The notes: generated by a model from the sequence alone, not told the origin. A DNA stretch of 64,000 nucleotides from an uncultured Candidatus Saccharibacteria bacterium (GCA_964623415.1 CAZUUH010000001.1:1305-65304), one strand, 5' to 3'. Positions 6,954 through 54,416 are shown, counted from the stretch's first letter. Numbers and translations: made by a program.

Positions 6954-7559
6954 ATGAAAGAAGAAAATAAAAATAAAACAATAATTAATGATTCAGAAAA
7001 TCAAATACAAGATGAAATTGTAAATGATTTAGAGTTTATTGAAACCAATGAAGAAGGGGAGTCTCTATTACCTAAAGATACAATCAAAAAATTAAAAGAA
7101 GAGATCAAGAATTTAAAAAAAGAAAAAGAAGAGTATCTTACTGGTTGGCAAAGAGCTAAAGCTGACTATATTAATTTACAAAAAGAATACGGAGATTCTC
7201 ATGCAAGAAGTTCTGTTTTAGTAAAAGAAAGATTTTTAAAAAGTTTACTTGCAGCAATAGATAGTTTTGATATAGCTTTTAAAAATAAAGAATCTTGGGA
7301 AAAAGTAGATAAGAACTGGCGAGTAGGTGTAGAATATATATATCAACAATTAATGACAGGTCTTTCTGATGAAGGAATAGATAAGATTGATGACATAAAT
7401 GCTAGTTTTGACCCTAAAATACATGAATCTGTTGATGTAGTAGAAACTAAAACAAAAGAACAAGATCATAAGATTGCAGATATAATACAAGTGGGGTACA
7501 AGATTGGTTCAAGAGTAATACGACCAGCTAGAATAAATATTTTTGAGTATAAAGATTAA
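6954..7559 (+). CDS. grpE: Nucleotide exchange factor GrpE
   Basis: Coiled-coil N-terminus, LTGWQRAKADYINLQKEY and a C-terminal IIQVGYKIGSRVIRPARI beta-domain are typical of GrpE. The ATG at 6954 follows the terminator; the track ORF start at 6708 overlaps rpsI and is spurious. Confidence 0.8.
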   Translation: MKEENKNKTIINDSENQIQDEIVNDLEFIETNEEGESLLPKDTIKKLKEEIKNLKKEKEEYLTGWQRAKADYINLQKEYGDSHARSSVLVKERFLKSLLAAIDSFDIAFKNKESWEKVDKNWRVGVEYIYQQLMTGLSDEGIDKIDDINASFDPKIHESVDVVETKTKEQDHKIADIIQVGYKIGSRVIRPARINIFEYKD

Positions 7560-8077
7560 ATAAATAAAGTTTTAATAAATTCTCTTCTTGTTTCTTCGTC
7601 TATTTTATCTGTAACCATTATCATTATTTCGGTTTTTAGACCAAGATCTTTTTTTATATTTGTAAATAAATGTTCGAATGGATAGATTGAAATCCAGACA
7701 GAATTTTTTATACAAACAAACTCGGCCTTCTTTAAAAGATAACGTAGCGCTTCACGTTCATTTTTTCTTTCTTCTGGAAGATCAAGCAATATTATTCTGA
7801 AATATCCATCCCATTCTGTTGAAACGAGACCATTTTCATTTTCTAAGTATAATTGATTTAGTTTATGCTTTCCTTCTTTGGTTAAGCGTATATATTCACA
7901 GTTATCTGATGAAATAGACTCAAGTAATCCATCTGCTTTCATATTTTTTATAGAACGAGAAATCGCATATTTATCCTTTGGGTTTTTGGTATTATTGTGT
8001 AATGTATCAAAAGGCACAGCTTTTTTCCCGGCTAATTTCTTTAAAATACCCCTAGAAATATTGGATTTTTTTACCAT
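7556..8077 (-). CDS. Putative transcriptional regulator: N-terminal winged HTH plus a C-terminal Cas2-like-fold (PaaX-type middle) domain
   Basis: The C-terminal RIILLDLPEERKNEREALRYLLKKAEFVCIKNSVWIS fits the Cas2/PaaX-middle-domain pattern (beta-strand with D, an Arg/Lys helix, G.r.Q.SV). It is a paralog of the gene at 15414..15914. It lies divergent from dnaK. Confidence 0.45.
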   Translation of the reverse strand: MVKKSNISRGILKKLAGKKAVPFDTLHNNTKNPKDKYAISRSIKNMKADGLLESISSDNCEYIRLTKEGKHKLNQLYLENENGLVSTEWDGYFRIILLDLPEERKNEREALRYLLKKAEFVCIKNSVWISIYPFEHLFTNIKKDLGLKTEIMIMVTDKIDEETRREFIKTLFI

Positions 8078-11311: not shown

Positions 11312-11400
11312 AATCCTTTACATATTTTACATTTTTGTTATTATTATAGATATTATTATTTTATTTCAGATGTTTGTTTAAATATCTGTATTTTAAAGAA

Positions 11401-12780
11401 ATGACTAAACGCTCAGTTGCTTCTAAAAAACTTTGGAAGCTTGGTGTTAGAGATTTTAATACTCAATATTTTGATTTTAATAAAGATGGTGATCTTATAG
11501 CAAAAGAAGGTAACAATGTCTACAATCTAAGATACTTAGCTGAAAAATTTGGCACATCGCTTGAAATTCTTTTCCCATATATAATTGAAGAGAGGGTTGA
11601 GGATTTACTTGATTTATCTGCTTCCATAATCAAAAAAATGAAATATCAGGGCAAGTTTTATTATCACTATCCAATGAAAGCAAATCAGACAAAAGAGGTT
11701 GTGATGGCTATGGTTGGTGAAGGTGCAAATATTGAAGTTTCTTCTTATAATGAACTTTATATTATAAAGAAAATGCTTGAGCAAGAATCTTTCAATGAGA
11801 GTATTCGTATTCTTTGTAATGGACCAAAAACTGATAAGTACATAAATCTAATTGATGAGCTTCAACACAGAGGGCTTAAGGTTATTCCTATAATAGAAGG
11901 ACCAAATGAATTAAAAACATTTCAATTTTCTAAATATGATGTTGGTATTAGATTAGATATTCCAATAAAATCAAAAGTAGATCCAACTAAGCAAGTTGAT
12001 AGATTTGGTTTTCCTAAACATGAAATTTTAAAAATGGAATCTTTTAAAAATTTAAAAATTCTTCATTTTAGACTTGGAAAATTAGAAAAAACTCATGATA
12101 TCCTTGAAACTGCGAAATATGCTATGGATGTATACGCTAGATTAAAAGAAAAAAATCCAAATTTGGATAGTATTGATATCGGGGGAGGAATGCCGATACC
12201 TTATGAAAGAAATAAAAAATATTCCACTGAAAAGATTTTAGAAAAACTTTTTGAAATGCTAAAAAGGGAAGCAGAAAAAAGAGAAATACCACATCCAAAT
12301 CTTATTTGTGAATGGGGTAAGTTTATGGTTGCACCAGCACAGATTACAATTTTTAAAGTTATAGATACTAAACCAATAAAGAATAAAAATATTAAAGCAA
12401 ATAAATGGTATGTTATTGATGGTAGTTTTATGAATGATCTTATTGACACATGGGGTCCACTTGAACAAAAATGGTTCGTAGCACCTCTTAGTAATAAGTT
12501 TGATAATAATCTTGAAGATGTTTGGATTTCTGGTTCTTCTTGTGATTCAGATGACATATATACAGGTATAGGTGAATCTATAACTTTACCAGATTATAAC
12601 TATGATGAAAATGAATCATTCTATATAGCATTTTTTGATACAGGTGCTTATCAAGATGCTCTTGCTTCACATCATTGTATGCTTTCATCTCCAATTAAAA
12701 TAATTGCAGAAAATGGTCATATTGTTGTTGCTCGTAAACGAGAAACACCAGAAGATGTAGGTAAAGAATTCGGTTGGTAA
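11401..12780 (+). CDS. speA: Biosynthetic arginine decarboxylase (fold-III PLP decarboxylase, SpeA-like)
   Basis: YHYPMKANQTKEVVMAMVGEGANIEVSS parallels the SpeA YPIKVNQ...GLEAGSK region. It sits next to the other polyamine genes. The track start at 11374 is TTG, so the ATG at 11401 is preferred. Confidence 0.65.
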   Translation: MTKRSVASKKLWKLGVRDFNTQYFDFNKDGDLIAKEGNNVYNLRYLAEKFGTSLEILFPYIIEERVEDLLDLSASIIKKMKYQGKFYYHYPMKANQTKEVVMAMVGEGANIEVSSYNELYIIKKMLEQESFNESIRILCNGPKTDKYINLIDELQHRGLKVIPIIEGPNELKTFQFSKYDVGIRLDIPIKSKVDPTKQVDRFGFPKHEILKMESFKNLKILHFRLGKLEKTHDILETAKYAMDVYARLKEKNPNLDSIDIGGGMPIPYERNKKYSTEKILEKLFEMLKREAEKREIPHPNLICEWGKFMVAPAQITIFKVIDTKPIKNKNIKANKWYVIDGSFMNDLIDTWGPLEQKWFVAPLSNKFDNNLEDVWISGSSCDSDDIYTGIGESITLPDYNYDENESFYIAFFDTGAYQDALASHHCMLSSPIKIIAENGHIVVARKRETPEDVGKEFGW

Positions 12781-12783
12781 ATA

Positions 12784-13872
12784 TTATTTTATATATCCTT
12801 TTTTGACTAACAATTCAGCATTTAAGATTCCTCCTCCTGCTGCCCCACGGACAGTGTTATGTGAGAGAGTGACAAATTTATAATCAAATATATTGCAATC
12901 ACGGAGTCTTCCTATTGTAACCGACATTGCTTTATCATTTCCTCGATCTTTTTTAGGTTGAGGACGATTTTCTTCTTCTGTATAAATTATTGGATTAATA
13001 GGAGCAAATGGAAGTTTTAATTCTTGTGGTTCACCTTTGAAATTTTTCCAAATTTTTATAATTTCTTCTTTTGTAGGCTTCTTATTTTTAAATTCTATAC
13101 TTACACAAGCAAGATGTCCGTCTGAAACTGGTACACGGGTACATGTAGCAGAAATTTTTAAATCTGTTTTATCTACAAATTTTCCATTTTTAATTTCTCC
13201 AAGTATTTTTAATGGCTCTTTCTCTGTTTTTTCTTCTTCACCACAGATAAATGGGACAACATTATCTATCATATCCAAACTTGCTACCCCCGGGTACCCA
13301 GCCCCTGAAACAGCTTGAAGGGTAGTAATAAATATACTTTTTATAGGGTAGCCAGCCTTATTTAGGGCATAAATAGGGGTTAAATAGCTCTGTAAGCTAC
13401 AATTTGGCTTAACTGCTATAAAACCCTTATCAAAACCTCTATTCTTCTTTTGGGCAGGAATTATATCTGTATGTTTGCTATTTATCTCTGGTATAAGCAT
13501 AGGGATATCAGATGTCCATCTATTTGCAGAAGCATTTGATACTACAGGTAAGCCAGCTTTAGCATATTCTTCCTCAGTCTTTTTTATTAATTCTTTATCA
13601 CTTATTTCAAAAGCTGAAAAAATAAAATCACACTTCTTTTTTGCTTTTGAAACATCTACGACATCTTCTACTATTAGGCTTGCAACTTCTTTAGGAATAG
13701 GTGAAGTCATTTGCCATCTGCCACTAACTGAATCTGAATATTTTTTTCCTTGAGAATTTGCTGAAGCGGCAACATAAGTCACACGAAACCAAGGATGATT
13801 CTCAAGTAAACGTATATAATTTTGTCCGACCATCCCTGTTGCACCCAATATTCCTACTTTAATTTTTTTCAT
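12784..13872 (-). CDS. asd: Aspartate-semialdehyde dehydrogenase
   Basis: N-terminal KVGILGATGMVGQ Rossmann motif, active-site-like NCSLQ, and a C-terminal RGAAGGGILNAELL. Confidence 0.7.
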   Translation of the reverse strand: MKKIKVGILGATGMVGQNYIRLLENHPWFRVTYVAASANSQGKKYSDSVSGRWQMTSPIPKEVASLIVEDVVDVSKAKKKCDFIFSAFEISDKELIKKTEEEYAKAGLPVVSNASANRWTSDIPMLIPEINSKHTDIIPAQKKNRGFDKGFIAVKPNCSLQSYLTPIYALNKAGYPIKSIFITTLQAVSGAGYPGVASLDMIDNVVPFICGEEEKTEKEPLKILGEIKNGKFVDKTDLKISATCTRVPVSDGHLACVSIEFKNKKPTKEEIIKIWKNFKGEPQELKLPFAPINPIIYTEEENRPQPKKDRGNDKAMSVTIGRLRDCNIFDYKFVTLSHNTVRGAAGGGILNAELLVKKGYIK

Positions 13873-13876
13873 ATTA

Positions 13877-15214
13877 CTATTTTATAAATTTCTTATAAAC
13901 TGCAGACATTATTTTATTTATATTGTCTGTTTTAATAACAGCCTCAATCCTGTAACAATCTTCATAATAGAAAGCACTTATAAGTAAATCTGCGCCTTTT
14001 TTAACCAGCAAATCGTTAAAGTTACTTACATCTTTAGCAGTAAACAATCCAACAAGATAAATCATACTAGCTTGTGTATTCTTAATATTTCTGATTTCAG
14101 ATTTTAATTCTTGTATTGCTTCTTCTAACTGTCCGTTCTTATTATCTACTATGATTTGGACACTATAGTTAGTATTACTTATAAGTGTCATATTAATTTT
14201 ATATTTTTTAAAGATATTACAAGCGGGAAGTAAGATTTCATTTAATTTCTTGTTCTCATCTGTTAGGAGTATAAAATTTAAATCCTTTTTAATACTTACG
14301 ATCTTTGCCCCTTTCTTTATTTTTTTATTATCACTGATAACTGTTTTTGCCTTAGGATCTATAATCGATGCTATCTCAATAGGGGTTTTAAACATTCGGA
14401 CGTAGGGGATAGCTTTGTCGTGTATAATCTTACCAGCTTCTTCGGCTTCATAATAATTTATAAACGGTATAGTTTTAGCTTTTTGTATTATTTTTGGATC
14501 TGCAGAAAGTACACCATCTACATCTTTCCATAGGATTATTTTATGAGCCTTAAGTGCTGCTCCTATAAAACAAGCTGTCGTATCTGTACCTCCACGACCT
14601 AGTGTAGTAATCTGCCCATCTTTTGTTATACCAGTAAAACCAGGTATAACTATTACATCTTTTTCTTCTTTTAATTTATTTAAAATATTTTTAGAAGATA
14701 TATCGTATTCTATGTTTGCATTCTTGAAATTGTCATCAGTAATTATTTTTATCTCTTCAGATAAGATTTTTTTAGATTTTATTCCAGAAGAATTTAAATA
14801 ATAATTAAAGATGATTGCTGAAATTTTTTCTCCAAATGAAACTATTTTATCTTCAAGTTCATTATCTATTTTATTTAATTTATTCAAATCTTTTTGGAGA
14901 AGAGATAACACATCTTTAATCTCTTGTTTAGCTTTTTCTGCATATTCGGAGGATAAATCGATATCACTTATTATAATTTCATGTTTAGTATATAGCTCCG
15001 TAACGAAATCATTTATAGCTCCTTCATTAAAATTTTCTTTTAAATTTTCAACAAAAGAAAGTAATTTATCTGTGACTCCAGGCATCGCAGAAACTACTGC
15101 TATGGGTAAATAACCAGATTTAATTTCTTCTTCGATTCTTTTCTTTATAAAAAGGATATATTCCTTTTTCAGAATTCCTCCACCAAATTTGTTGACAATA
15201 ACTTTCTTTGACAT
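13877..15214 (-). CDS. lysC: Aspartate kinase
   Basis: NKFGGGIL and TTLGRGGTDTTACFIGAAL...WKDVDGVLSADPKII amino-acid-kinase motifs, with a C-terminal ACT-like region. Confidence 0.75.
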   Translation of the reverse strand: MSKKVIVNKFGGGILKKEYILFIKKRIEEEIKSGYLPIAVVSAMPGVTDKLLSFVENLKENFNEGAINDFVTELYTKHEIIISDIDLSSEYAEKAKQEIKDVLSLLQKDLNKLNKIDNELEDKIVSFGEKISAIIFNYYLNSSGIKSKKILSEEIKIITDDNFKNANIEYDISSKNILNKLKEEKDVIVIPGFTGITKDGQITTLGRGGTDTTACFIGAALKAHKIILWKDVDGVLSADPKIIQKAKTIPFINYYEAEEAGKIIHDKAIPYVRMFKTPIEIASIIDPKAKTVISDNKKIKKGAKIVSIKKDLNFILLTDENKKLNEILLPACNIFKKYKINMTLISNTNYSVQIIVDNKNGQLEEAIQELKSEIRNIKNTQASMIYLVGLFTAKDVSNFNDLLVKKGADLLISAFYYEDCYRIEAVIKTDNINKIMSAVYKKFIK

Positions 15215-15301
15215 AGTTTTATCTCGATTATTAATAACTACTTAAGTGTATAATATTTAGCTTAAAAATCAAGGAGAATTTGGAATATTTCAAATAAACA
15301 C

Positions 15302-15350
15302 ACCACCCACAAAAGAGAATTACTCTTTACGGGTGGTTTTCTTTTTTATT
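15302..15350 (+). terminator. Strong hairpin (accaccc-ac-aaaagag/ctcttt-ac-gggtggt) followed by a T-rich run, preceded by a TATAAT at 15249-15254
   Basis: Read directly from the sequence. It lies in the lysC / PaaX-like intergenic region with no plus-strand gene upstream, so it may be a leader attenuator or a short sRNA terminator. Confidence 0.45.
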
Positions 15351-15376
15351 ATTCCCTATATATTAAAAATCAATAC

Positions 15377-15412
15377 TGACACACTTTCTGCAGGTGCAGA
15401 GTTTGTGTCACT
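15377..15412. repeat. Left copy of a perfect 36-bp inverted repeat (tgacacactttctgcaggtgcagagtttgtgtcact), itself an imperfect palindrome
   Basis: Exact reverse complement of 15915-15950. It ends 1 nt before the ATG of the enclosed gene. Confidence 0.9.
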
Positions 15413-15413
15413 A

Positions 15414-15914
15414 ATGCATTTAAAGTATAATATTAATATGTCTATAGTAAGTGAAATATTAGAAGAACTTTGGAATACAGAATACAATTATAGAGGAGTA
15501 AGAGTAAATATTTTTGGTATACCTAAATTTAAAAAGTATTCACAAAGGAGTGTTCGTACGACGGTTGATCGTTTAAAGAAAAAAGGGATTATAGAAAAAG
15601 AGATTTCTGGGATAATTCTTTCAAAATATGGCAAAGAATATGTAAAAAGAAAATTCGATTCATTGAAACAATTCGAGAAACCAGAAAATATATCAAAAGA
15701 AAGAAAACTTCTTGTGATGTTTGACGTTCCTAGTGAAAGGAAAGGTGAGCGTGAGTGGCTACGTTGGCATCTAAAAAAATTTAATTATATTATGATTCAG
15801 CAAAGTGTTTGGGTTGGACCAGCTCCACTTCCAAAAGAATTCAGTAATTACCTTAAGGAAATTAAACTCGATAAATGTATTAAAACTTTTAAACTTGAAA
15901 AACCGTATAAATAA
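15414..15914 (+). CDS. Putative transcriptional regulator, wHTH + Cas2-like-fold (PaaX-type) domain
   Basis: KLLVMFDVPSERKGEREWLRWHLKKFNYIMIQQSVWVG aligns to the Cas2/PaaX middle-domain pattern, and the N-terminal half looks like a wHTH (VRTTVDRLKKKGIIEK). It is a paralog of 7556..8077. The track start at 15333 is GTG inside the repeat/terminator region, so the ATG at 15414 is preferred. Confidence 0.45.
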   Translation: MHLKYNINMSIVSEILEELWNTEYNYRGVRVNIFGIPKFKKYSQRSVRTTVDRLKKKGIIEKEISGIILSKYGKEYVKRKFDSLKQFEKPENISKERKLLVMFDVPSERKGEREWLRWHLKKFNYIMIQQSVWVGPAPLPKEFSNYLKEIKLDKCIKTFKLEKPYK

Positions 15915-15950
15915 AGTGACACAAACTCTGCACCTGCAGAAAGTGTGTCA
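15915..15950. repeat. Right copy of the perfect 36-bp inverted repeat, starting immediately after the stop codon and followed by T5
   Basis: agtgacacaaactctgcacctgcagaaagtgtgtca followed by ttttt. It can fold as a hairpin and so probably also terminates the gene. Confidence 0.9.
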
Positions 15951-16002
15951 TTTTTGTCAAATAAAATTATTCTTTAAAGGGATTACTAATCTGCAAGGAT
16001 TT

Positions 16003-16030
16003 TTGTATATTTTTACCATTTTGATATAAT
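16003..16030 (+). promoter_or_regulatory. Sigma70-like promoter TTGTAT-16-TATAAT placed only 6 nt before the ATG, implying a leaderless mRNA
   Basis: Hexamers read directly from the sequence. The ATG at 16037 sits at the expected TSS position. Confidence 0.4.
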
Positions 16031-16036
16031 TACAAC

Positions 16037-17281
16037 ATGTCAAAAATATTAGTTATTGGTTGCGGAAATGTGGGAAGCGTAGGCTTGCACAAAATGGCTC
16101 AATTTCCGAAAGTTTTCTCCGAAATACATGTAGTAGGGAGAACTCTTTCGAAGTGTGAGGCTGTTGCCAAATCCGTCTTTAAAAGATTTAAAGTTAAATT
16201 ACATATTCATATTAGTGACGTAGGCAAGGGTGATAATTTCCTAAAATTACTTAAAGAAGTAAATCCGGAGTTGGTAGTAAACTGGGGAAGTCCTTATGAC
16301 AATCTAGTTGTTATGGATGCATGTTTGGAATATGGTGTTAGATATATTGATACAGCTTGTTATGAACATCCAGATAAATATGGTTTTTCATATAAATTAC
16401 AATTAGCTAAAAATGAAGCATATAAAAAGAAAAATCTTCTTGCTATTTTAGGTTGCGGTTTTGATCCAGGAGTTTCAAATATTTTTTCTGCTTATGCTCG
16501 TGATTATCTTTTTGATAAAATAGATACCATAGATATTTTGGATTGTAATGGTGGTTCAAAAGATGAAAGTATTAAATTTGCTCCAAACTTTGATCCAGAG
16601 ATAAATCTTCGCGAGCTTATTCTTCCTATCAAGTATTGGAAAGATGGTAAATGGCAAGAAAAAGGAAAACTTATTGATGAAGATGCTCCTTTCTTTGAAT
16701 TTAATTTTCCTGAGGCAGGGAAGTTCACCCCATACCTTATGTATCATGAAGAGCTTGAGACTATTCCAAGTCATATTCCTGGTTTAAAGAAAATTCGTTT
16801 TTGGATGACATTCTCAAAGAATTATCTTACATATCTTCGAGTCCTTTACAATGTTGGGTTAACTCGTATCGATGAGATTGATTACAATGGTAATAAAGTA
16901 ATCCCTGTAAAATTTTTGAAAGCTATCTTGCCTAAGGGAGAAGATTTTAATAGTGGATACGTGGGCAAGACAAATATTGGGAATATCATAACTGGAAAGA
17001 AGAATGGAAAGAAGAAAATGGTTTATATTTACAATGTTTGTGATCATAAAGAAGCATTTAAAGAAACTGGTGGTAATGCTATTGGCTATACAACAGCTAT
17101 TCCGACTGTTACTTGTGCAAAGCTTGTACTTGAAGGGAAATGGGGTGGAATTGGTGTTAAGAATACAGAGGATGAGTCACTTGATTCAAAAGTTTTCTTG
17201 GATGAAATGGCAAAAGTTGGGCTTACATGGCAAGTAAAGAATTTGAAAGATATCCCAGCCGCACTAAAGAAAAACTACTAA
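16037..17281 (+). CDS. Carboxy(nor)spermidine dehydrogenase/synthase (saccharopine dehydrogenase family)
   Basis: N-terminal ILVIGCGNVGSVGLHKMAQ Rossmann fold, about 414 aa, directly followed by the carboxynorspermidine decarboxylase gene. Confidence 0.75.
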   Translation: MSKILVIGCGNVGSVGLHKMAQFPKVFSEIHVVGRTLSKCEAVAKSVFKRFKVKLHIHISDVGKGDNFLKLLKEVNPELVVNWGSPYDNLVVMDACLEYGVRYIDTACYEHPDKYGFSYKLQLAKNEAYKKKNLLAILGCGFDPGVSNIFSAYARDYLFDKIDTIDILDCNGGSKDESIKFAPNFDPEINLRELILPIKYWKDGKWQEKGKLIDEDAPFFEFNFPEAGKFTPYLMYHEELETIPSHIPGLKKIRFWMTFSKNYLTYLRVLYNVGLTRIDEIDYNGNKVIPVKFLKAILPKGEDFNSGYVGKTNIGNIITGKKNGKKKMVYIYNVCDHKEAFKETGGNAIGYTTAIPTVTCAKLVLEGKWGGIGVKNTEDESLDSKVFLDEMAKVGLTWQVKNLKDIPAALKKNY

Positions 17282-17287
17282 AAAACA

Positions 17288-18475
17288 ATGTCTAATAACG
17301 AAAATATATTTATAGAGCCGTGGATTGAGAGAGATGTCTTTGCAGATGTTGATTTTTCGAAAGTTAAAACCCCGGCTTATATTGTGGGTGAAGAAAAGCT
17401 CGAGAATAATTTAAAGATTCTAAATAAAGTAGAGAAAGGAACTGGTGCTAAAATTCTGATGGCTATAAAAAGTTTTTCCATGTTTAAAGTTTTTCCTCTT
17501 GCTCGCAAATATCTTTCTGGTTCTGAAGCTAGCTCTGTAAATGAGGCGAAGCTTGGCCACACAAAGTTTGGAAAAGAAACTCATACCTTTTCTCCTTCTT
17601 ATACAAATAAAAATATAAAAGAATATTTAAAGTATTCAGATCATTTAGTTTTTAATTCATTTTCTCAGTGGAATAAATTTAAGGATGTCTGCAACGGAAA
17701 AGCTTCTTGTGGAATAAGAGTAAATGTAGAGCATAGCGAAACAGATAATCCTATGTATGACCCAAGTAGACCAAAATCACATTTTGGTGTAACTATTTCA
17801 AACTTTCAAAATGAGAACATTGAAGGTCTAGAAGGATTACATTTTCATAATCTTTGTGAATTAAATGCAGATGCACTGGAAAGAACCCTAAAAGTTTTCG
17901 AAGATAAATTTGGAAAATATTTAGCTAAAATGAAATGGGTGAATTTTGGTGGAGGGCATCACATAACTCGTAAAGATTATGATTTAGATTTACTTTATAA
18001 AACAATAAAAGATTTTAAAACAAGGTATCCTCATTTAGAGGTGTACTTAGAACCAGGAGAAGCTATCGCACTTAATGCTGGAGTCCTCGTGGGTAGTGTT
18101 GTAGATACTTTTAATAATGGTATAAATATAGCTGTTTTGGATGTTTCTCCTACTTGTCATATGCCAGATGTCATAGAAATGCCTTATTTACCTACTATTT
18201 TAGGGGCTAAATCGGCCACAGAGCGAAGTAGTGATATTTATCGCCTAGTAGGACCTAGCTGTCTTACTGGGGATGTAATAGGCGAATATTCTTTCAATAA
18301 ACCTTTAAAGGTTGGTGATAAGGTTGTGTTCTTGAACATGGCCATATATACTATGGTGAAAAATAATACTTTTAATGGAGTAAATTTACCAGATATTTCT
18401 TTATTAAATAAAAAAGGTAAAATAAAAGTAATTAAAAGTTTCGGATACGAAGATTTTAAGAATAGATTATCATAA
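17288..18475 (+). CDS. nspC: Carboxy(nor)spermidine decarboxylase
   Basis: Fold-III PLP decarboxylase of about 395 aa (AIKSFSMFKV, GGGHHIT). Length and context match NspC. Confidence 0.75.
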   Translation: MSNNENIFIEPWIERDVFADVDFSKVKTPAYIVGEEKLENNLKILNKVEKGTGAKILMAIKSFSMFKVFPLARKYLSGSEASSVNEAKLGHTKFGKETHTFSPSYTNKNIKEYLKYSDHLVFNSFSQWNKFKDVCNGKASCGIRVNVEHSETDNPMYDPSRPKSHFGVTISNFQNENIEGLEGLHFHNLCELNADALERTLKVFEDKFGKYLAKMKWVNFGGGHHITRKDYDLDLLYKTIKDFKTRYPHLEVYLEPGEAIALNAGVLVGSVVDTFNNGINIAVLDVSPTCHMPDVIEMPYLPTILGAKSATERSSDIYRLVGPSCLTGDVIGEYSFNKPLKVGDKVVFLNMAIYTMVKNNTFNGVNLPDISLLNKKGKIKVIKSFGYEDFKNRLS

Positions 18476-18480
18476 AAATT

Positions 18481-19533
18481 ATGGAAAATAAAAAAATATT
18501 AGAAGAAAAAATTTCAAATTTTAATCCAAACGAGAATGGTCTTTTCGAACATGGAATCTTTGGATTACCTTTTAATATAGAAGAATCCGAATTAGTACTT
18601 GTCCCTGTGCCTTGGGAAGCCACAGTTTCTTATGGAAGTGGTTCTTCAAAAGGACCAAAGACAATACTTGATGCTTCACAACAGATTGATTTGTATGATT
18701 CTATCTATCCAAATGGTTGGAAAAGGGGAATTGCTATGCAAGATATACCTACAGATATGTATTACGAGAATATGCAAGTCTGCAAGAAAGTTTCTACCTA
18801 TTTAGGAAGTTTTTTAACTGGAAATAAAGACGAAGCACTCCTAGAAGAGATAAATAATGACTGCAAGAATCTTAATAAACGTATTGAAGAAGTTGTAGAT
18901 GGACTTTTAAAAAAAGGAAAAATTGTTGGAATAGTGGGAGGGGATCATAGCTCTCCTTTTGGATATTTCAAATCTTTGGCAAAGAAATATAGAGAATTTG
19001 GGGTTTTATACATAGATGCTCACGCAGATCTTAGATGTGCATATGAAGGTTTTAATTATTCTCATGCTTCCATATTCCACAATGTTCTCTCTATCCCAAA
19101 CATTTCAAAATTAGTTCAAGTTGGAGTAAGAGATATAAGTGAGGAAGAAATGAATATCGTAAAAGATCAAAAAGATAGAATTAAGTTATTTTCTGATTAT
19201 GAAATTAAAAAGGAATTATTTGAAGGAAAAAGTTGGGCAAAAAAATGTGATGAAATAGTAAAAAATTTACCAAAGGACGTTTATATATCTTTTGATATCG
19301 ATGGTCTCGCTCCTTACCTTTGCCCAAATACTGGTACTCCGGTTCCAGGGGGTCTAGGGATAGATGAGCTGGTTTTCTTATTTGAAAAGATAATAGAATC
19401 TAAAAGAAAAATTATTGGTTTTGACCTTTGTGAAGTAGTTCCTGGTAAAGACGGAGATGAATGGGACGGAAACGTCGGCGCTCGCGTACTCTACAAGCTT
19501 TGTTTACTTGCATTAAAAAGTAATTCTTGTTAG
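18481..19533 (+). CDS. speB: Agmatinase (arginase/ureohydrolase family)
   Basis: GGDHS, DAHADL and SFDIDGLAP metal-binding motifs, in polyamine-gene context. Confidence 0.7.
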   Translation: MENKKILEEKISNFNPNENGLFEHGIFGLPFNIEESELVLVPVPWEATVSYGSGSSKGPKTILDASQQIDLYDSIYPNGWKRGIAMQDIPTDMYYENMQVCKKVSTYLGSFLTGNKDEALLEEINNDCKNLNKRIEEVVDGLLKKGKIVGIVGGDHSSPFGYFKSLAKKYREFGVLYIDAHADLRCAYEGFNYSHASIFHNVLSIPNISKLVQVGVRDISEEEMNIVKDQKDRIKLFSDYEIKKELFEGKSWAKKCDEIVKNLPKDVYISFDIDGLAPYLCPNTGTPVPGGLGIDELVFLFEKIIESKRKIIGFDLCEVVPGKDGDEWDGNVGARVLYKLCLLALKSNSC

Positions 19534-19667
19534 TTTAAGTCAAAATCACTTTCAAATAAAAATTCACTTTTAAACCCTAGATGAACCGACTAGGTAATTA
19601 AACGGTAAATGTTATGATAAAAGAAGTAAATGAACTCAAGTTTTATCTTACAAAGAATACTGTGTTT

Positions 19668-21050
19668 TTATTCTATAAATATTTCCTGTCCATTATCTGT
19701 GTCCTTTACTTCATAACCAAGTTTGTTTATCTCGTAACGTAATTTATCACTTTCTTTCCAGTCTTTATTCTGTCTTGCAACTTCTCTAGCTTCTACGAGT
19801 TTCTTAACACTTTTAGGAATTTTATCTTTCTTAAGTTTCAAGATATCAAAACCAAGAACTCTATCAAAGTCTATAATTGTAGCAAGCTTGTCTTCTTTTT
19901 TAATATCTGATTTTAATAAATCTTGAACTATTGCCATAGCTTTGGGCATATTCAAATCATCGTTTATTGCACTTAAAAATTGATCAGCAAATATTTTATC
20001 AGTATTACCAACCTTGTCCCCAAGATTTTTAACTCTATTTATCAGATTATTAAATCCATTTTTTGCAGATATAAGTACATCATCTGTCCATTCCATTTTC
20101 TTTCTGTAATGAACTAAAAATGTTGCGTACCTGAAAGCAAGAGGATTTATATTTTTATTTATAAACTCACTTTTAATAGTTAAAAAATTTCCGGTACTTT
20201 TAGCCATCTTTTCATCATTACCCAAATTAAGGAATTCTCCATGCACCCAATAATTTACCCAAGGTTTTACACCAGTAAAAGCTTCTGTCTGTGCTATTTC
20301 ATTGGTATGATGAGTATTTATATGGTCAACAGCACCACAGTGTATATCAAAATGACTTCCTAGATATTTTAAGCTTATTGCAGAGCACTCTATATGCCAA
20401 CCAGGAAAACCTACACCCCAAGGACTATTCCATTCCATTTGTCTTTTTATATCCCTAGGAGAAAATTTCCATAAAGCAAAATCTGTGGGGTTTCTTTTGT
20501 ATTCATTTATTTCAACTCTCGCACCCTCCCATAGATCTTCTATATTTTGATGAGAAAGTTTAGTGTAATCTTCTACTTTTGAAGTATCAAAATATATGCC
20601 GTCAGCAATTTTATATGTATAACCCTTTTCTTCTAAAATTTTAATCATTTTTATTTGATCTTTTATATGAGAAGTAACAGCACAAAATCTATTGGGGTAG
20701 AGAATATTTAAATTTTTTAAATCTTCTTTAAATGATTTTGTATAAAATTTTGTTATAAATTTAGCTTTTTTGTTTTCCTTTACTGATTCCTTTTCTATTT
20801 TATCTTCACCCATATCTCTGTCACCAGTTAGATGACCAACATCTGTAATATTCATAACATGTTTTACTAAATAACCATTATATAGAATTACACGTTTTAA
20901 CACGTCTTCAAAAATATATGTTCTCATATTACCAATATGAGCATAATTATAAACAGTAGGACCACAAGTATACATATATACTTTTGTGGGTATTATGGGT
21001 GTAAATTCTTCTTTTTCTCTTCTAAGAGTGTTAAATATTACTAAAGACAT
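19668..21050 (-). CDS. cysS: Cysteine--tRNA ligase
   Basis: Class I HIGN motif (YNYAHIGNMRTY) and KMSKS variant KMAKSTGN. Confidence 0.9.
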   Translation of the reverse strand: MSLVIFNTLRREKEEFTPIIPTKVYMYTCGPTVYNYAHIGNMRTYIFEDVLKRVILYNGYLVKHVMNITDVGHLTGDRDMGEDKIEKESVKENKKAKFITKFYTKSFKEDLKNLNILYPNRFCAVTSHIKDQIKMIKILEEKGYTYKIADGIYFDTSKVEDYTKLSHQNIEDLWEGARVEINEYKRNPTDFALWKFSPRDIKRQMEWNSPWGVGFPGWHIECSAISLKYLGSHFDIHCGAVDHINTHHTNEIAQTEAFTGVKPWVNYWVHGEFLNLGNDEKMAKSTGNFLTIKSEFINKNINPLAFRYATFLVHYRKKMEWTDDVLISAKNGFNNLINRVKNLGDKVGNTDKIFADQFLSAINDDLNMPKAMAIVQDLLKSDIKKEDKLATIIDFDRVLGFDILKLKKDKIPKSVKKLVEAREVARQNKDWKESDKLRYEINKLGYEVKDTDNGQEIFIE

Positions 21051-25697: not shown

Positions 25698-27104
25698 ATG
25701 CAAGAAAGAAAATATATAAAAGATTTAGAGAATTTAATTGGGCAAGAGGTTACAATATCTGGATGGGTAGATGTAAGACGTGATCAAGGAAAAATGATTT
25801 TTCTTGATTTTCGAGATGTTACTGGTATTGTCCAAGGAGTAATATTGCCAAATAGTGAAGCTATGATTCTAGGTAAAACTCTTAGGGAAGAATTTGTAGT
25901 TTCTATTTTAGGTAAAGTAAATGAGAGACCAGATAAAAACAAAAAAGAAGGGGTCTTGAATGGTAATATAGAGCTTGAAGTTCTTAAAATTGAGATATTA
26001 AATGAATCTAAGGCGCTTCCTTTCCCAATAGGTGGAGATACGAGAGATATAAATGAGTCTGTACGTTTAAAATATAGATATCTAGATCTTAGAAATGCGA
26101 GGATGCACAAAAATATAGATCATCGTTTTAGAATACAAAATTATATAAGAAAATATCTTGAAGAAAATAGTTTTACCGAAATAGAAACTCCATTACTTTC
26201 AGCTCCAACCCCTGAAGGATCTAGATCTTACATAGTGCCAAGTAGAATTTGGCAAGGAAATTTTTATTCATTACCGCAATCACCACAACAATATAAGCAA
26301 TTATTAATGGTTGCTGGTTTTGAAAAATACTTTCAATTTGCTAGGTGTATGAGAGATGAGGACACACGTGGTGATCGTCAACCAGAATTTACTCAGCTTG
26401 ATATAGAAATGTCTTTCGTAACAGAAGAAGAAGTAATGCAATTAAACGAAAAGATGCTTATTAATTTAGTTCAAAAATATTATCCTAATAAAAAAATACA
26501 GCAAATTCCATTTCCAAGAATTTCTTATAAAGAAGCAATGGAAAAATATGGCAATGATAGACCAGATATAAGAGAAAACAAAAACGACAATGACCTTCTT
26601 GCGTTTTTATGGGTTGTAGATTTTCCAATGTTTGAAAAGACTGGAGAAGATAATGTTGATGGTACTGGTGAATGGACATTTACACATAATCCATTTTCTA
26701 AACCTAGAGATAATCATTTTGAGAAATTTATGCAAAAAGAAGATATTGGTAGTATTTTAACAACCCAATATGATATTACTTTAAATGGTCTTGAAATTGG
26801 AGGTGGAAGTATAAGAAACCATAAAGCTGAAGCTCTAAAGAATACTTTTGAAATTATGGGTTATGATAAAGATAGAATAGATAATAACTTTGGTCATATG
26901 TTAGAAGCTTTGGATTTTGGAGCACCTCCACACGGTGGAATTGCTTGGGGTTTTGATAGGTTAATAATGATACTTGAAAATGAACCAAATATTCGTGAAG
27001 TTATTCCTTTTGCAAAAACAGGAGATGGTAAAGATTTAATGATGAACGCACCCACAAAAGTATCCGATAATCAACTTAAAGAACTTGGTATAAATAAAAA
27101 ATAA
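25698..27104 (+). CDS. aspS: Aspartate--tRNA ligase (compact form)
   Basis: FQFARCMRDEDTRGDRQPEFTQLDIEMSF (motif 2) and GGSIRNH...GFDRLIMIL (motif 3). At 468 aa it is shorter than typical bacterial AspRS (reduced insertion domain). Confidence 0.88.
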   Translation: MQERKYIKDLENLIGQEVTISGWVDVRRDQGKMIFLDFRDVTGIVQGVILPNSEAMILGKTLREEFVVSILGKVNERPDKNKKEGVLNGNIELEVLKIEILNESKALPFPIGGDTRDINESVRLKYRYLDLRNARMHKNIDHRFRIQNYIRKYLEENSFTEIETPLLSAPTPEGSRSYIVPSRIWQGNFYSLPQSPQQYKQLLMVAGFEKYFQFARCMRDEDTRGDRQPEFTQLDIEMSFVTEEEVMQLNEKMLINLVQKYYPNKKIQQIPFPRISYKEAMEKYGNDRPDIRENKNDNDLLAFLWVVDFPMFEKTGEDNVDGTGEWTFTHNPFSKPRDNHFEKFMQKEDIGSILTTQYDITLNGLEIGGGSIRNHKAEALKNTFEIMGYDKDRIDNNFGHMLEALDFGAPPHGGIAWGFDRLIMILENEPNIREVIPFAKTGDGKDLMMNAPTKVSDNQLKELGINKK

Positions 27105-38199: not shown

Positions 38200-39051
38200 A
38201 TGTTTAAGCTAAATGAAGGTAAAATAAAAGAACTAGAAAAAACTGCAAATAACATCAGGAAAAATATCATAAAGATGTTATCTTTAGCTAAAAGTGGCCA
38301 TACAGCTGGAGCACTTGGAATGGCTGATATTTTCACTTTTTTATATTTTTATGCTTTAAAACATGACCCCAACAATCCAAATCTTAAAAATAAAGACCAT
38401 TTAGTTTTATCAAATGGTCACATTTGCCCAGTTCTATATGCAACAATGGCAGAGGCTCAATATTTTAATAAAAATGAACTATTTAATTTAAGAAAATTTG
38501 GTTCTATGTTACAAGGTCATCCCCACAGAGAATTCATGCCAATTATTGAGACATCTTCTGGTCCACTAGGGGAGGGATTATCACAAGCAATAGGAATAGC
38601 TCTTGCTTTAAAGATTGACAATAAGGATATGGGAGATGGTAATAACATTTTTTGTATTTCAAGTGATGGAGAATTAAATGAAGGCCAAACTTGGGAAGCA
38701 GTAATGCTTGCTGCAAAAGAAAAACTAAATAAATTGATATTGATAATCGACAGAAATAATATCCAAATAGAAGGGAACACAGAAGAAATTATGCCTCTTG
38801 AAAATTTAAAAAATAAATTTGAGTCTTTCAACTGGTTTGTAAAAGAGATTAATGGGCATGATTTTAACGAAATGAATGAAGCTATAATTAAAGCACAAGA
38901 AAATACAAATAAGCCATCCGTAATCATCGCACACACAACACCATCTAAGGGAATCAAAAAATGGGAGAATGATTATCGTTGGCATGGCAAAACTCCTAAT
39001 CAAAAAGAAGCAGAAGAGGCAATTATAGAATTAAATAAATTATATGCTTAA
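38200..39051 (+). CDS. Transketolase, N-terminal (TPP-binding) subunit
   Basis: GHTAGALGMADIFTFLY and GDGELNEGQTWEAVMLA are TPP-binding motifs. It is a split transketolase with the following gene. Confidence 0.85.
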   Translation: MFKLNEGKIKELEKTANNIRKNIIKMLSLAKSGHTAGALGMADIFTFLYFYALKHDPNNPNLKNKDHLVLSNGHICPVLYATMAEAQYFNKNELFNLRKFGSMLQGHPHREFMPIIETSSGPLGEGLSQAIGIALALKIDNKDMGDGNNIFCISSDGELNEGQTWEAVMLAAKEKLNKLILIIDRNNIQIEGNTEEIMPLENLKNKFESFNWFVKEINGHDFNEMNEAIIKAQENTNKPSVIIAHTTPSKGIKKWENDYRWHGKTPNQKEAEEAIIELNKLYA

Positions 39052-40042
39052 TCAATCATTAAAATTAAATACAAAAATTTTTAACAATGATGTAGAGAAA
39101 GGTCATACACGCCTAGGGTTCGGTGAGGGTTTATTACAAGCTGGAATGATTGATCAAAATATTGTTGCTTTATGTGCAGACTTAACAGAATCAACTAAAA
39201 CAAATCTATTTGCTGAAAAATTTCCTGAAAGATTTATACAAGTAGGAATAGCAGAACAAAATATGGCTTCTGTTGCAAGCGGTATGGCATCTTTAGGAAA
39301 AATACCTTTTATAGTTTCTTATGGAATATTCAACCCAGGACGTAATTGGGAACAAATAAGAACCAATATTTGTTACAACAATCAAAATGTTAAAATTATT
39401 GGCTCTCATGGTGGTTTATCTGTCGGAGAGGATGGTGGAAGTCACCAAATGCTTGAAGACATAGCAATAACAAAAGCAATACCAAACATTATAGTTATTT
39501 CTCCTTGTGATAAAATAGAAGCTAAAAAAGCAACTCTTGCAATCTCAAAAAACGAAAAGCCTACATATATGCGTTTAGCTAGAAATAGCACCCCTGTAAT
39601 AACAAGCGAAGAAACCCCATTTGAAATAGGAAAAGCGCAAATAGTTTTTGAGCCAGAACTTGGTCTTGCTCGTGTAGGAATAATAGCAACAGGACCAATA
39701 CTTTATAAAGCAATAATTTCTGCTCGTGAACTTGAAAAAAGAGGAGTGAAAACAAAAGTAATGAATTTATCAACAATAAAACCTCTAGATGAGAATGCAA
39801 TTATATCACTAGCAAAAGAAGTAAAGTGTCTAGTTACAGTAGAAGACCATCAGATAAATGGAGGAATGGGTGGTAGCGTATCTCAATTACTTTCAAAGAA
39901 TTATCCAATACCAATTGAATTTATTGGAGTAGATGATCAATTTGGACAATCAGGAACTCCAGAAGAACTAGAAAAACACTATCATATTGATACAATAGAC
40001 ATTATAGAAAAAGTAGAAAAGGTTATTAAAAGAAAATTATAA
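39044..40042 (+). CDS. Transketolase, C-terminal (pyrimidine-binding) subunit
   Basis: Conserved Pyr/C-terminal transketolase domain. The gene overlaps the N-terminal subunit gene by 8 nt. Confidence 0.85.
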   Translation: MLNQSLKLNTKIFNNDVEKGHTRLGFGEGLLQAGMIDQNIVALCADLTESTKTNLFAEKFPERFIQVGIAEQNMASVASGMASLGKIPFIVSYGIFNPGRNWEQIRTNICYNNQNVKIIGSHGGLSVGEDGGSHQMLEDIAITKAIPNIIVISPCDKIEAKKATLAISKNEKPTYMRLARNSTPVITSEETPFEIGKAQIVFEPELGLARVGIIATGPILYKAIISARELEKRGVKTKVMNLSTIKPLDENAIISLAKEVKCLVTVEDHQINGGMGGSVSQLLSKNYPIPIEFIGVDDQFGQSGTPEELEKHYHIDTIDIIEKVEKVIKRKL

Positions 40043-53615: not shown

Positions 53616-54416
53616 ATGGAACAAAAAACAACCACAAATATCATAGCAACTATAGGCCCATCTAGTTGCGATAAAGAAACTTTATCACAAATGATAGATC
53701 ACAATATGGATATGGCTCGTTTAAATTTTTCATGGGGTTCATATGAATGGTTCATAGATGTTATTGGTTTGATAAAAGAACTTAGCAAAGAAAAAAATAA
53801 ATATATACCTATAATACAGGATTTATCTGGACCAAGAATCCAAGATGAAAATGGACATTATTTTAATAATGAAAGTAAGGATAAAATAATTACAGAAAAG
53901 GATATAGCTGATTTAGAATTTGGAATAAAAAATAATGTTGATTATATTGCAATGTCTTTTGTAGGTTGTAAAGATGACATTGTAGAACTAAGAAATATTA
54001 TAAAAGAAAAAGGTGGTAAACAAAAAATTATTGCAAAAATAGAAAGGAAAATGGCTGTAGACAATCTATGTGAAATTATACAAGAAGCAGACGCTATAAT
54101 GGTTGCTCGTGGAGATCTTGGTAATGAATTTGCGTTAGAAGAAATACCTTTTATTCAACACAAAATAATACAGGCTTCAAACCTAGCCGATAAGATGGTC
54201 ATCGTAGCAACACAAATGTTGTTATCAATGGTTGAAAACGATAAACCTACAAGAGCTGAAGTTACAGACATTGCTTATGCCATATTAGACGGAGCAGATG
54301 GTATTATGCTATCAGAAGAATCTGCTAAAGGAAAACACCCAGTTCTTGCGATAAAAATAATGGAAAATATTGCAAGATTTGCTGAAAAACATCGCAATAT
54401 TATTAAAATAGATTAA
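53616..54416 (+). CDS. pyk: Minimal pyruvate kinase (A/TIM-barrel domain only; B lid and C-terminal allosteric domain absent)
   Basis: IIATIGPSS...MARLNFSWG, DLSGPRI, MVARGDLG and PTRAEVTDIAYAILDGADGIMLSEESAKGK align to the PK A domain. The roughly 100-aa B-domain insert and the C domain have no counterpart. Confidence 0.65.
   Translation: MEQKTTTNIIATIGPSSCDKETLSQMIDHNMDMARLNFSWGSYEWFIDVIGLIKELSKEKNKYIPIIQDLSGPRIQDENGHYFNNESKDKIITEKDIADLEFGIKNNVDYIAMSFVGCKDDIVELRNIIKEKGGKQKIIAKIERKMAVDNLCEIIQEADAIMVARGDLGNEFALEEIPFIQHKIIQASNLADKMVIVATQMLLSMVENDKPTRAEVTDIAYAILDGADGIMLSEESAKGKHPVLAIKIMENIARFAEKHRNIIKID

Follow-up and report, generated by a model that had tools for sequence, protein, structure and literature searches.

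The carboxyspermidine/carboxynorspermidine pathway was reportedly described by Lee et al. in 2009 for Vibrio cholerae and by Hanfrey et al. in 2011 for Campylobacter jejuni. It pairs a carboxyspermidine or carboxynorspermidine dehydrogenase (CASDH, CANSDH), which uses L-aspartate-beta-semialdehyde (ASA), with a cognate decarboxylase (CASDC, CANSDC). The carboxyaminopropylagmatine (CAPA) pathway of Synechocystis starts from agmatine and ASA and proceeds via carboxyaminopropylagmatine and aminopropylagmatine to spermidine and urea (Xi et al. 2023, PMC10599626). Its enzymes are a CAPA dehydrogenase (CAPADH), a CAPA decarboxylase (CAPADC) and an aminopropylagmatine ureohydrolase (APAUH). In ectoine and hydroxyectoine clusters, a specialised, pathway-embedded aspartokinase, Ask_Ect, raises or secures the supply of ASA for a non-proteinogenic product (PMC5924519, PMC3979721). 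We describe a cluster of six enzyme genes at positions 11401–19533 of a 64-kb stretch of DNA (CAZUUH010000001.1:1305-65304), called the window in the following, from a bacterium of the candidate phyla radiation (CPR). It encodes a short SpeA-like decarboxylase, an aspartate-semialdehyde dehydrogenase (Asd), an aspartokinase (LysC), a CASDH-family dehydrogenase, an nspC-family decarboxylase and a ureohydrolase. With a probability of about 0.7, this cluster, which is conserved in Paceibacteria, would serve the de novo synthesis of spermidine from L-arginine and L-aspartate, with lysC-asd as the precursor supply.

The CAPA pathway of Synechocystis resembles the cluster in the adjacency of the CAPADH, CAPADC and APAUH families, accompanied by an arginine decarboxylase, and in ASA as the aminopropyl donor. 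The likeness extends to the His-Glu and Phe signatures of the dehydrogenase, to an arginine following the DAHxD motif of the ureohydrolase and to a split between ureohydrolase and deiminase/amidase variants. Differences concern the precursor supply, the sequences and the host. Aspartokinase and Asd are inside the cluster, whereas Xi et al. show aspartokinase only in the pathway scheme. A cysteine takes the place of Asn104, the SpeA-like decarboxylase is short, and the pathway is predicted here from its genes. The host belongs to the CPR, which are not among the 15 phyla of Xi et al. With the CASDH/CANSDH and CASDC/CANSDC pathway, the cluster has in common that ASA is used and that its dehydrogenase and decarboxylase are of the same families; it differs in lacking the signature residues of the Agrobacterium and Vibrio enzymes and in having lysC-asd as part of a conserved cluster.

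In its logic, the cluster comes closest to the ectoine cluster with its specialised aspartokinase (PMC5924519). As with Ask_Ect, the aspartokinase is located inside a conserved cluster for an ASA-derived product. In ectoine producers, the housekeeping aspartokinases and the complete aspartate-family pathways are retained, and asd is usually outside the cluster. The present cluster includes lysC as well as asd, its predicted product is a polyamine, and aspartate-family amino acids are probably not made by the host. The enzyme families of the pathway are already known. A polyamine cluster of this type was mentioned in one sentence for the complete 0.69-Mb OD1 genome RAAC4, as ‘alternative polyamine biosynthesis’ (Kantor 2013, PMC3812714). 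In a literature search of incomplete coverage, we found no paper that treats lysC and asd as a conserved part of CASDH/CAPADH clusters and, apart from that sentence, no discussion of how CPR make polyamines.

Gene cluster and operon layout

The initial annotation had reported a six-gene cluster of polyamine genes with lysC and asd, and family models confirmed all six at the positions given. On the minus strand, the gene for a monofunctional aspartate kinase with two ACT-like domains (lysC, 13877–15214) is followed after 4 nt by an asd of the archaeal/eukaryotic ‘EA’ type (12784–13872). This pair converges, with a gap of 3 nt, on the plus-strand gene of the SpeA-like decarboxylase (11401–12780), a pyridoxal phosphate enzyme of fold III with 459 amino acids and a candidate arginine decarboxylase producing agmatine, its substrate being suggested by the context. 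The dehydrogenase for a reductive condensation (16037–17281), the carboxy(nor)spermidine or carboxyaminopropylagmatine decarboxylase of the nspC family (17288–18475) and an arginase-fold ureohydrolase (18481–19533), either an APAUH or an agmatinase, are encoded on the plus strand, separated by 6 and 5 nt. Thus, lysC-asd form an operon that is divergent from the dehydrogenase-decarboxylase-ureohydrolase operon.

The SpeA-like decarboxylase gene is preceded at a distance of 62–90 nt by dnaJ. Its start was placed by the open reading frame (ORF) lister at a TTG at 11374; the methionine conserved in relatives (Met10) corresponds to the ATG at 11401. The cluster shows no compositional break, the window having around 30% G+C. 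Scans for promoters and terminators gave signals no higher than the shuffled expectation. Upstream of lysC and of the dehydrogenase gene, no riboswitch or leader was detected at gathering or E ≤ 1 thresholds, an L-box/lysine riboswitch included.

Conservation among relatives

A scan of one genome per species yielded 34 loci with this LysC clade, at 39%–60% LysC identity and thus none identical to the window's. An exact-match search with the dehydrogenase sequence gave a 2.3-kb Logan contig only. The window proteins were compared to these loci by tblastn; 32 loci were assessable and two were cut by a contig end. Asd was encoded directly downstream of LysC in all 32 assessable loci, and the dehydrogenase gene was located divergently upstream of lysC in 27 of the 34. 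The nspC gene followed the dehydrogenase gene in every relative whose sequence extended far enough, directly or after one ORF. The divergent core of lysC-asd and dehydrogenase-decarboxylase was retained down to 39% LysC identity, in Paceibacteria, Falkowbacteria and Magasanikbacteria-type genomes. Three context look-ups in other assemblies (LysC 55%–69% identical) gave the order dnaK-dnaJ-decarboxylase, one or two variable genes and asd-lysC, again with divergent dehydrogenase and decarboxylase genes. Found again in 27 of the 34 species representatives with this LysC clade, the clustering goes beyond chance. This conserved synteny backs the core idea of the initial annotation, a tie of lysC-asd to polyamine genes.

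The terminal step varies inside the fixed cluster. The ureohydrolase gene is replaced in four relatives (L002, L006, L011 and L031) by agmatine-deiminase-like and N-carbamoylputrescine-amidase-like genes, and L022 has both gene types around lysC-asd. This alternation identifies the cluster as one pathway unit. Genomes with CAPADH are known to split in the same way into a ureohydrolase type and a deiminase/amidase type (PMC10599626).

Some relatives have further genes within the cluster. An ORF of 571 amino acids without NCBIfam or Pfam match is located between the dehydrogenase and decarboxylase genes in L002 (6858–8573) and also in L003. Between asd and the SpeA-like decarboxylase gene, two relatives encode a protein similar to tRNA-dependent cyclodipeptide synthases (L002:12544–13233 and L006:12522–13211; TIGR04539 61 bits, cut-off 45), which is absent from the window. 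L006 also shows an uneven similarity to the window. Its segment corresponding to window positions 15994–18478, with the dehydrogenase and decarboxylase genes, has 89%–90% nucleotide identity, and the two proteins are 98% and 93% identical. The flanking genes, including dnaK and asd, are 69%–78% identical to the window. The segment is bounded by the intergenic region of lysC and by the exchanged genes of the terminal step. This pattern suggests a recent recombination or horizontal exchange of the two-gene segment between Paceibacteria lineages.

Proposed spermidine pathway and amine acceptor

The proposed pathway would start with the phosphorylation of aspartate by LysC and the reduction of aspartyl phosphate to ASA by the EA-type Asd. 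The SpeA-like decarboxylase would convert arginine into agmatine. The CASDH-family dehydrogenase would catalyse the NADPH-dependent reductive condensation of ASA with an amine acceptor, followed by removal of the carboxyl group by the nspC-type decarboxylase and of urea by the ureohydrolase. In the order of the CAPA pathway, agmatine would be the acceptor, urea would be lost last and free putrescine would not appear. On paper, the six genes are enough to form spermidine from arginine, aspartate, ATP and NADPH, and ASA would be the aminopropyl donor with either acceptor.

LysC, Asd and the nspC decarboxylase scored above the curated cut-offs of their families. LysC matched TIGR00657 with 247 bits (cut-off 208.7). 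An AlphaFold2 model (pLDDT 89.8) superimposed over the full length with the threonine-sensitive aspartokinase of Methanocaldococcus jannaschii (3C1N, TM-score 0.90). The ACT domains were not significant in Pfam; the ACT-like fold was kept in the model. Asd matched TIGR00978 (asd_EA) with 379 bits (cut-off 301). Its best PDB matches were the fungal and the M. jannaschii enzymes, and the NCS active-site motif aligned. It is 63%–83% identical to the enzymes of relatives with an EA-type Asd; L027 and L041 have another Asd type. The dehydrogenase contains the Pfam domains Sacchrp_dh_NADP and Sacchrp_dh_C and matched four solved structures of the CASDH/CAPADH group (4INA, 8DEB, 4RL6 and 8H4Z) with E values of 1e-105 to 1e-123. 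The nspC decarboxylase reached 481 bits in TIGR01047 (cut-off 409). The features of a classical CASDH/CASDC pair, a saccharopine-dehydrogenase fold with a catalytic histidine and an accompanying CASDC, are thus present in the window proteins. At the family level, these matches uphold the assignments of both enzymes in the initial annotation. Its alternative of a true saccharopine dehydrogenase or homospermidine synthase was rejected, given the His-Glu-Glu triad and the best matches, all of which are structures of the CASDH/CAPADH group. The ureohydrolase matched Pfam Arginase with 178 bits and the agmatinase model TIGR01230 with 168.5 bits, slightly below the cut-off of 174.3.

Signature residues separate the known dehydrogenases. 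In the numbering of Slr0049, CAPADH has Asn104, Phe113 and Glu228; the same positions are Ile/Trp/Asp in the CASDH of Agrobacterium and Val/Glu/Asp in the CANSDH of Vibrio (PMC10599626). The window enzyme has Cys108, Phe117 and His237-Glu238. With the equivalent of Glu228 it passes the filter of Xi et al., without the full triad, and it does not have the Ile/Trp/Asp of the Agrobacterium type. The His-Glu pair was present in all 30 CPR dehydrogenase orthologs. Orthologs of the Paceibacteria clade share Cys/Phe/Glu, those of the Magasanikbacteria type have Asn/(Leu or Met)/Glu. Two of the solved homologs, 4RL6 and 8H4Z, preferred agmatine in the tests of Xi et al. (PMC10599626). The ureohydrolase has its best PDB match in 3PZL, an enzyme characterised as APAUH in the same study, in which Glu60 and Arg151 (Sll0228 numbering) were found to be specific to APAUH (PMC10599626). 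All members of the clade have the motif DAHADLR with the equivalent of Arg151, which the Escherichia coli SpeB (sequence entered by hand) lacks. Because of the signature residues His-Glu, Phe and DAHxDxR, agmatine is somewhat favoured over putrescine as the acceptor. From the initial interpretation, the tie between lysC-asd and polyamine genes stands; by the same residues, the acceptor may be agmatine and its agmatinase an APAUH.

Some observations weigh against the agmatine route. The position of Asn104 is a cysteine throughout the Paceibacteria clade. Close homologs from Bacteroides fragilis (8DEB) and Clostridium leptum use putrescine in vitro (PMC10413350). Of the two residues specific to APAUH, Glu60 and Arg151, the comparison covered the equivalent of Arg151. 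The SpeA-like decarboxylase, the ureohydrolase and the deiminase and amidase of the relatives all scored under their equivalog cut-offs, and we infer their substrates.

The classical carboxyspermidine route is accordingly a possible alternative, though on the less probable side. Agmatine would first be converted into putrescine, by an agmatinase here and by deiminase and amidase in the relatives, and putrescine would then be condensed with ASA; the role of lysC-asd would be unchanged. This route would agree with the cysteine, with the putrescine use of the two homologs and with the agmatinase score, which is near the cut-off in the window and above it in the Magasanikbacteria-type L040 (229 bits). 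The replacement genes of the relatives also have their best matches in the models for agmatine deiminase and N-carbamoylputrescine amidase. These matches are, however, far under the equivalog cut-offs (290 bits against 382 for the deiminase, 255 against 410 for the amidase). The route further conflicts with the Glu228 and Phe113 equivalents, where the Agrobacterium and Vibrio enzymes have Asp and Trp or Glu, with the agmatine preference of the closest solved homologs and with the APAUH-type arginine of the ureohydrolase.

Norspermidine, the other product considered in the initial annotation, lost support. In NCBIfam and Pfam scans, neither the cluster nor the rest of the window yielded an aminotransferase or a decarboxylase for 2,4-diaminobutyrate, and the equivalog model of the Vibrio CANSDH (NF043000) scored 336 bits at a cut-off of 800. 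In contrast to the Vibrio-type pathway, the predicted pathway would have no diaminobutyrate enzymes and hence form no 1,3-diaminopropane and no norspermidine. The agmatine route would extend the CAPA-type enzymes to a large uncultured radiation. The cysteine at the position of Asn104 and the interchange of ureohydrolase with deiminase and amidase offer natural variants for specificity studies.

Fate of aspartate semialdehyde

In this cluster, lysC-asd are probably the pathway's own precursor supply and not the trunk of lysine, threonine and methionine synthesis. The initial annotation had noted the absence of dapA, hom and thrA from the window, and the scans agreed: around 60 ORFs of the window, among them nearly all of those with at least 100 amino acids, contained no dapA, dapB, hom or thr genes according to NCBIfam or Pfam. 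Tblastn searches with DapA and DapB of E. coli (sequences entered by hand) had no match in the window and none in the CPR loci. As a positive control, the same queries matched only the Coriobacteriia locus L043, in the order dapB-lysC-dapA. The fetched neighbourhoods of CPR also contained no hom or thr genes. Published genomes show a similar picture. RAAC4 lacks complete pathways for most amino acids (Kantor 2013, PMC3812714), and gene sets for amino acid biosynthesis are absent or greatly reduced in OD1 (Nelson and Stegen 2015, PMC4508563).

The same LysC clade has a second context. In L023, L027 and L029, lysC-asd are located directly behind genes for 2-amino-3,7-dideoxy-D-threo-hept-6-ulosonate synthase (ADH synthase; 265–292 bits, cut-off 241) and 3-dehydroquinate synthase II (DHQS-II), at L023:7874–12554, L027:4616–9004 and L029:8181–12554. 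According to White in 2004, these two enzymes are said to form a route from ASA and 6-deoxy-5-ketofructose-1-phosphate. The archaeal-type entry into the shikimate pathway begins from ASA (PMC4162585). The remaining shikimate pathway genes accompany the locus in L023: 5-enolpyruvylshikimate-3-phosphate (EPSP) synthase, a shikimate kinase/dehydrogenase fusion, 3-dehydroquinase I, chorismate synthase and prephenate dehydrogenase/chorismate mutase. L029 has a fusion of EPSP synthase and chorismate synthase immediately upstream. These gene sets suggest that some CPR can make aromatic amino acids via a bacterial copy of the archaeal route. A distance tree of LysC placed the genes linked to the shikimate pathway in one clade, between two clades linked to polyamine genes. 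The archaeal-type entry is absent from the window; it resembles the spermidine pathway as an ASA consumer joined to the same lysC-asd pair of CPR.

Altogether, of the 32 assessable relatives, 27 had lysC-asd joined to polyamine genes and three to those of ADH synthase and DHQS-II, which makes 30 with ASA-consuming enzymes beside the pair. Their position beside one or the other set of consumers characterises lysC-asd as a portable precursor module.

An ordinary housekeeping role of lysC and asd in the aspartate family is unlikely; their position beside polyamine genes would then be due to chance, and ASA would be provided mainly for lysine/diaminopimelate, threonine or methionine. The full two-ACT architecture of LysC resembles that of threonine- or lysine-inhibited aspartokinases, and the window contains the peptidoglycan genes mraY, murG and ftsW, which implies a need for a diamino acid. 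L027, a CPR locus with this LysC clade, has leuB and ilvB-like genes, and the evidence covers part of the genome. Against this explanation stand the synteny with ASA consumers, the lack of dapA and dapB matches in the window and the CPR loci in view of their position beside lysC in the control, the reported lack of amino acid pathways in OD1 genomes including the complete RAAC4, and the negative search for a lysine riboswitch upstream of lysC.

The dedication of ASA to polyamines also has observations to its disadvantage. The scans for dap, hom and ADH synthase genes cover the 64-kb window, and dapA, hom or an ADH synthase gene may be encoded elsewhere in the genome. LysC retains two ACT-like domains, as amino acid-regulated aspartokinases do. 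At least some CPR whose LysC belongs to this clade direct ASA into a different pathway. Locus L041 has no ASA-consuming neighbour within 7 kb and only signalling genes nearby, and L018 shows none within the 1.3 kb available. In this organism, ASA may be dedicated to the spermidine pathway. More tentatively, and for Paceibacteria-type CPR in general, aspartokinase and Asd might no longer serve amino acids at all: their sole role would be that of a portable ASA generator, mostly for spermidine and once re-deployed onto the shikimate entry.

For nearly all of their building blocks, CPR or Patescibacteria are believed to rely on hosts. A complete and conserved set of six enzymes that leads from arginine and aspartate to spermidine would mean that they need spermidine and do not reliably scavenge it, and the route would be one of the few biosynthetic capacities that CPR cells keep. 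If lysC-asd indeed serve only as an ASA generator, spermidine would still be built from two amino acids in an organism that otherwise scavenges nearly everything, and the ACT domains of LysC, which have strongly diverged, might then sense a metabolite of the polyamine pathway instead of lysine or threonine. The cluster would represent a natural example of an aspartokinase and Asd uncoupled from amino acid synthesis, and it bears on how precursor-supply modules move with pathways. For annotation, lysC and asd of CPR should not be taken as a capability for lysine or threonine synthesis.

Substrate of the SpeA-like decarboxylase

The first enzyme on the arginine side was compared with arginine and diaminopimelate decarboxylases. 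In NCBIfam, it stayed under the cut-off of both models, with 161 bits for SpeA (NF003763, cut-off 369) and 121 bits for LysA. A search with the single sequence separated the two little, with 85.9 bits for SpeA and 78.7 bits for the full length of the diaminopimelate decarboxylase of M. jannaschii. A profile of the family preferred SpeA structures, with 131–142 bits, over diaminopimelate decarboxylase with 97 bits. The invariant motifs CDSDD and GAYQ…H are like those of SpeA, whereas diaminopimelate decarboxylase has CESxD. The gene adjoins asd in at least 12 relatives, and its co-location extends to the Paceibacteria clade as well as the Magasanikbacteria-type clade. A diaminopimelate (LysA-like) or other amino acid decarboxylase, with agmatine or putrescine imported or made by another enzyme, is very improbable: the close single-sequence scores, the sub-threshold models and four loci without a decarboxylase gene beside asd (L017, L020, L024 and L028) would fit it, but the family profile, the motifs and the co-location in both clades argue for SpeA, and the ureohydrolase or the deiminase and amidase require a guanidino substrate, which is provided only by arginine decarboxylation.

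PaaX_M gene and palindromic repeats

The intergenic region between lysC and the dehydrogenase gene has 822 nt in the window and 100–260 nt in the relatives. The difference is due to an inserted gene on the plus strand (15438–15914) for a small, regulator-like protein of 158 amino acids. The protein resembles a winged helix at its N-terminus and has a PaaX_M (Cas2-like) domain (Pfam PaaX_M 47 bits, CggR_N 23 bits). An internally palindromic repeat of 42–43 nt flanks the gene on both sides. The left copy (15371–15412, 42 nt) is located between lysC and the small gene, the right copy (15915–15956, 42 nt) 80 nt upstream of the dehydrogenase gene. Together they form an inverted repeat with 95% complementarity. 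A 34-nt core is identical in both copies, CTGCAGGTGCAG, and occurs twice in the window against an expectation of zero.

An ortholog with 78% identity is encoded in L009, at another genomic position and with the same flanking palindromes (gene and repeats at 19584–20200). Gene and repeats therefore travel as a whole. The palindrome motif was found nowhere else in the window and in none of 85 other loci. The PaaX_M-like gene was also considered as a conserved regulator of the cluster. This was rejected: it is part of the cluster only here, and its L009 ortholog is located elsewhere with the same palindromes. The unit may be an autoregulated repressor with its operators or a RAYT/REP-like mobile cassette, and gene and repeats may now affect both divergent operons.

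The window encodes a second PaaX_M protein on the minus strand (7556–8077), divergent and beside grpE-dnaK-dnaJ. It is 42% identical over 53 amino acids to the protein in the polyamine cluster. This second gene is kept in relatives (L002:18106–18636, L004:18807–19334 and L006:18117–18629). It is a candidate regulator of the heat-shock operon, and hrcA was not seen beside grpE-dnaK-dnaJ.

Genomic setting and lineage

The window is assigned by its gene sequences to the CPR (OD1/Parcubacteria), as a Paceibacteria/Nomurabacteria-type genome with a reduced gene set. The assignment is based on the relatives of its LysC together with hallmarks of reduced genomes. The named relatives in the LysC clade are all CPR: Candidatus Nomurabacteria, Paceibacterota or Paceibacteria. 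Besides the genes already mentioned, the window encodes ribosomal proteins, an F-type ATPase, the lower part of glycolysis and the pentose phosphate pathway's non-oxidative branch. Many of its genes scored weakly against bacterial models.

Several of the window's proteins have an unusual size or organisation. The aspartyl-tRNA synthetase (25698–27104, 468 amino acids) matched the bacterial model in two stretches, the insertion domain being missing. Transketolase is split over two ORFs (38200–40042). An ORF of 266 amino acids (53616–54416) encodes only the barrel of a pyruvate kinase.

The CPR-type cluster of lysC-asd and the dehydrogenase gene was also present in loci labelled ‘uncultured Gammaproteobacteria’ (L032 and L040) and ‘Saccharibacteria’ (L020 and L030). 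Their LysC group with Magasanikbacteria or Paceibacteria, and the taxonomic labels look doubtful.

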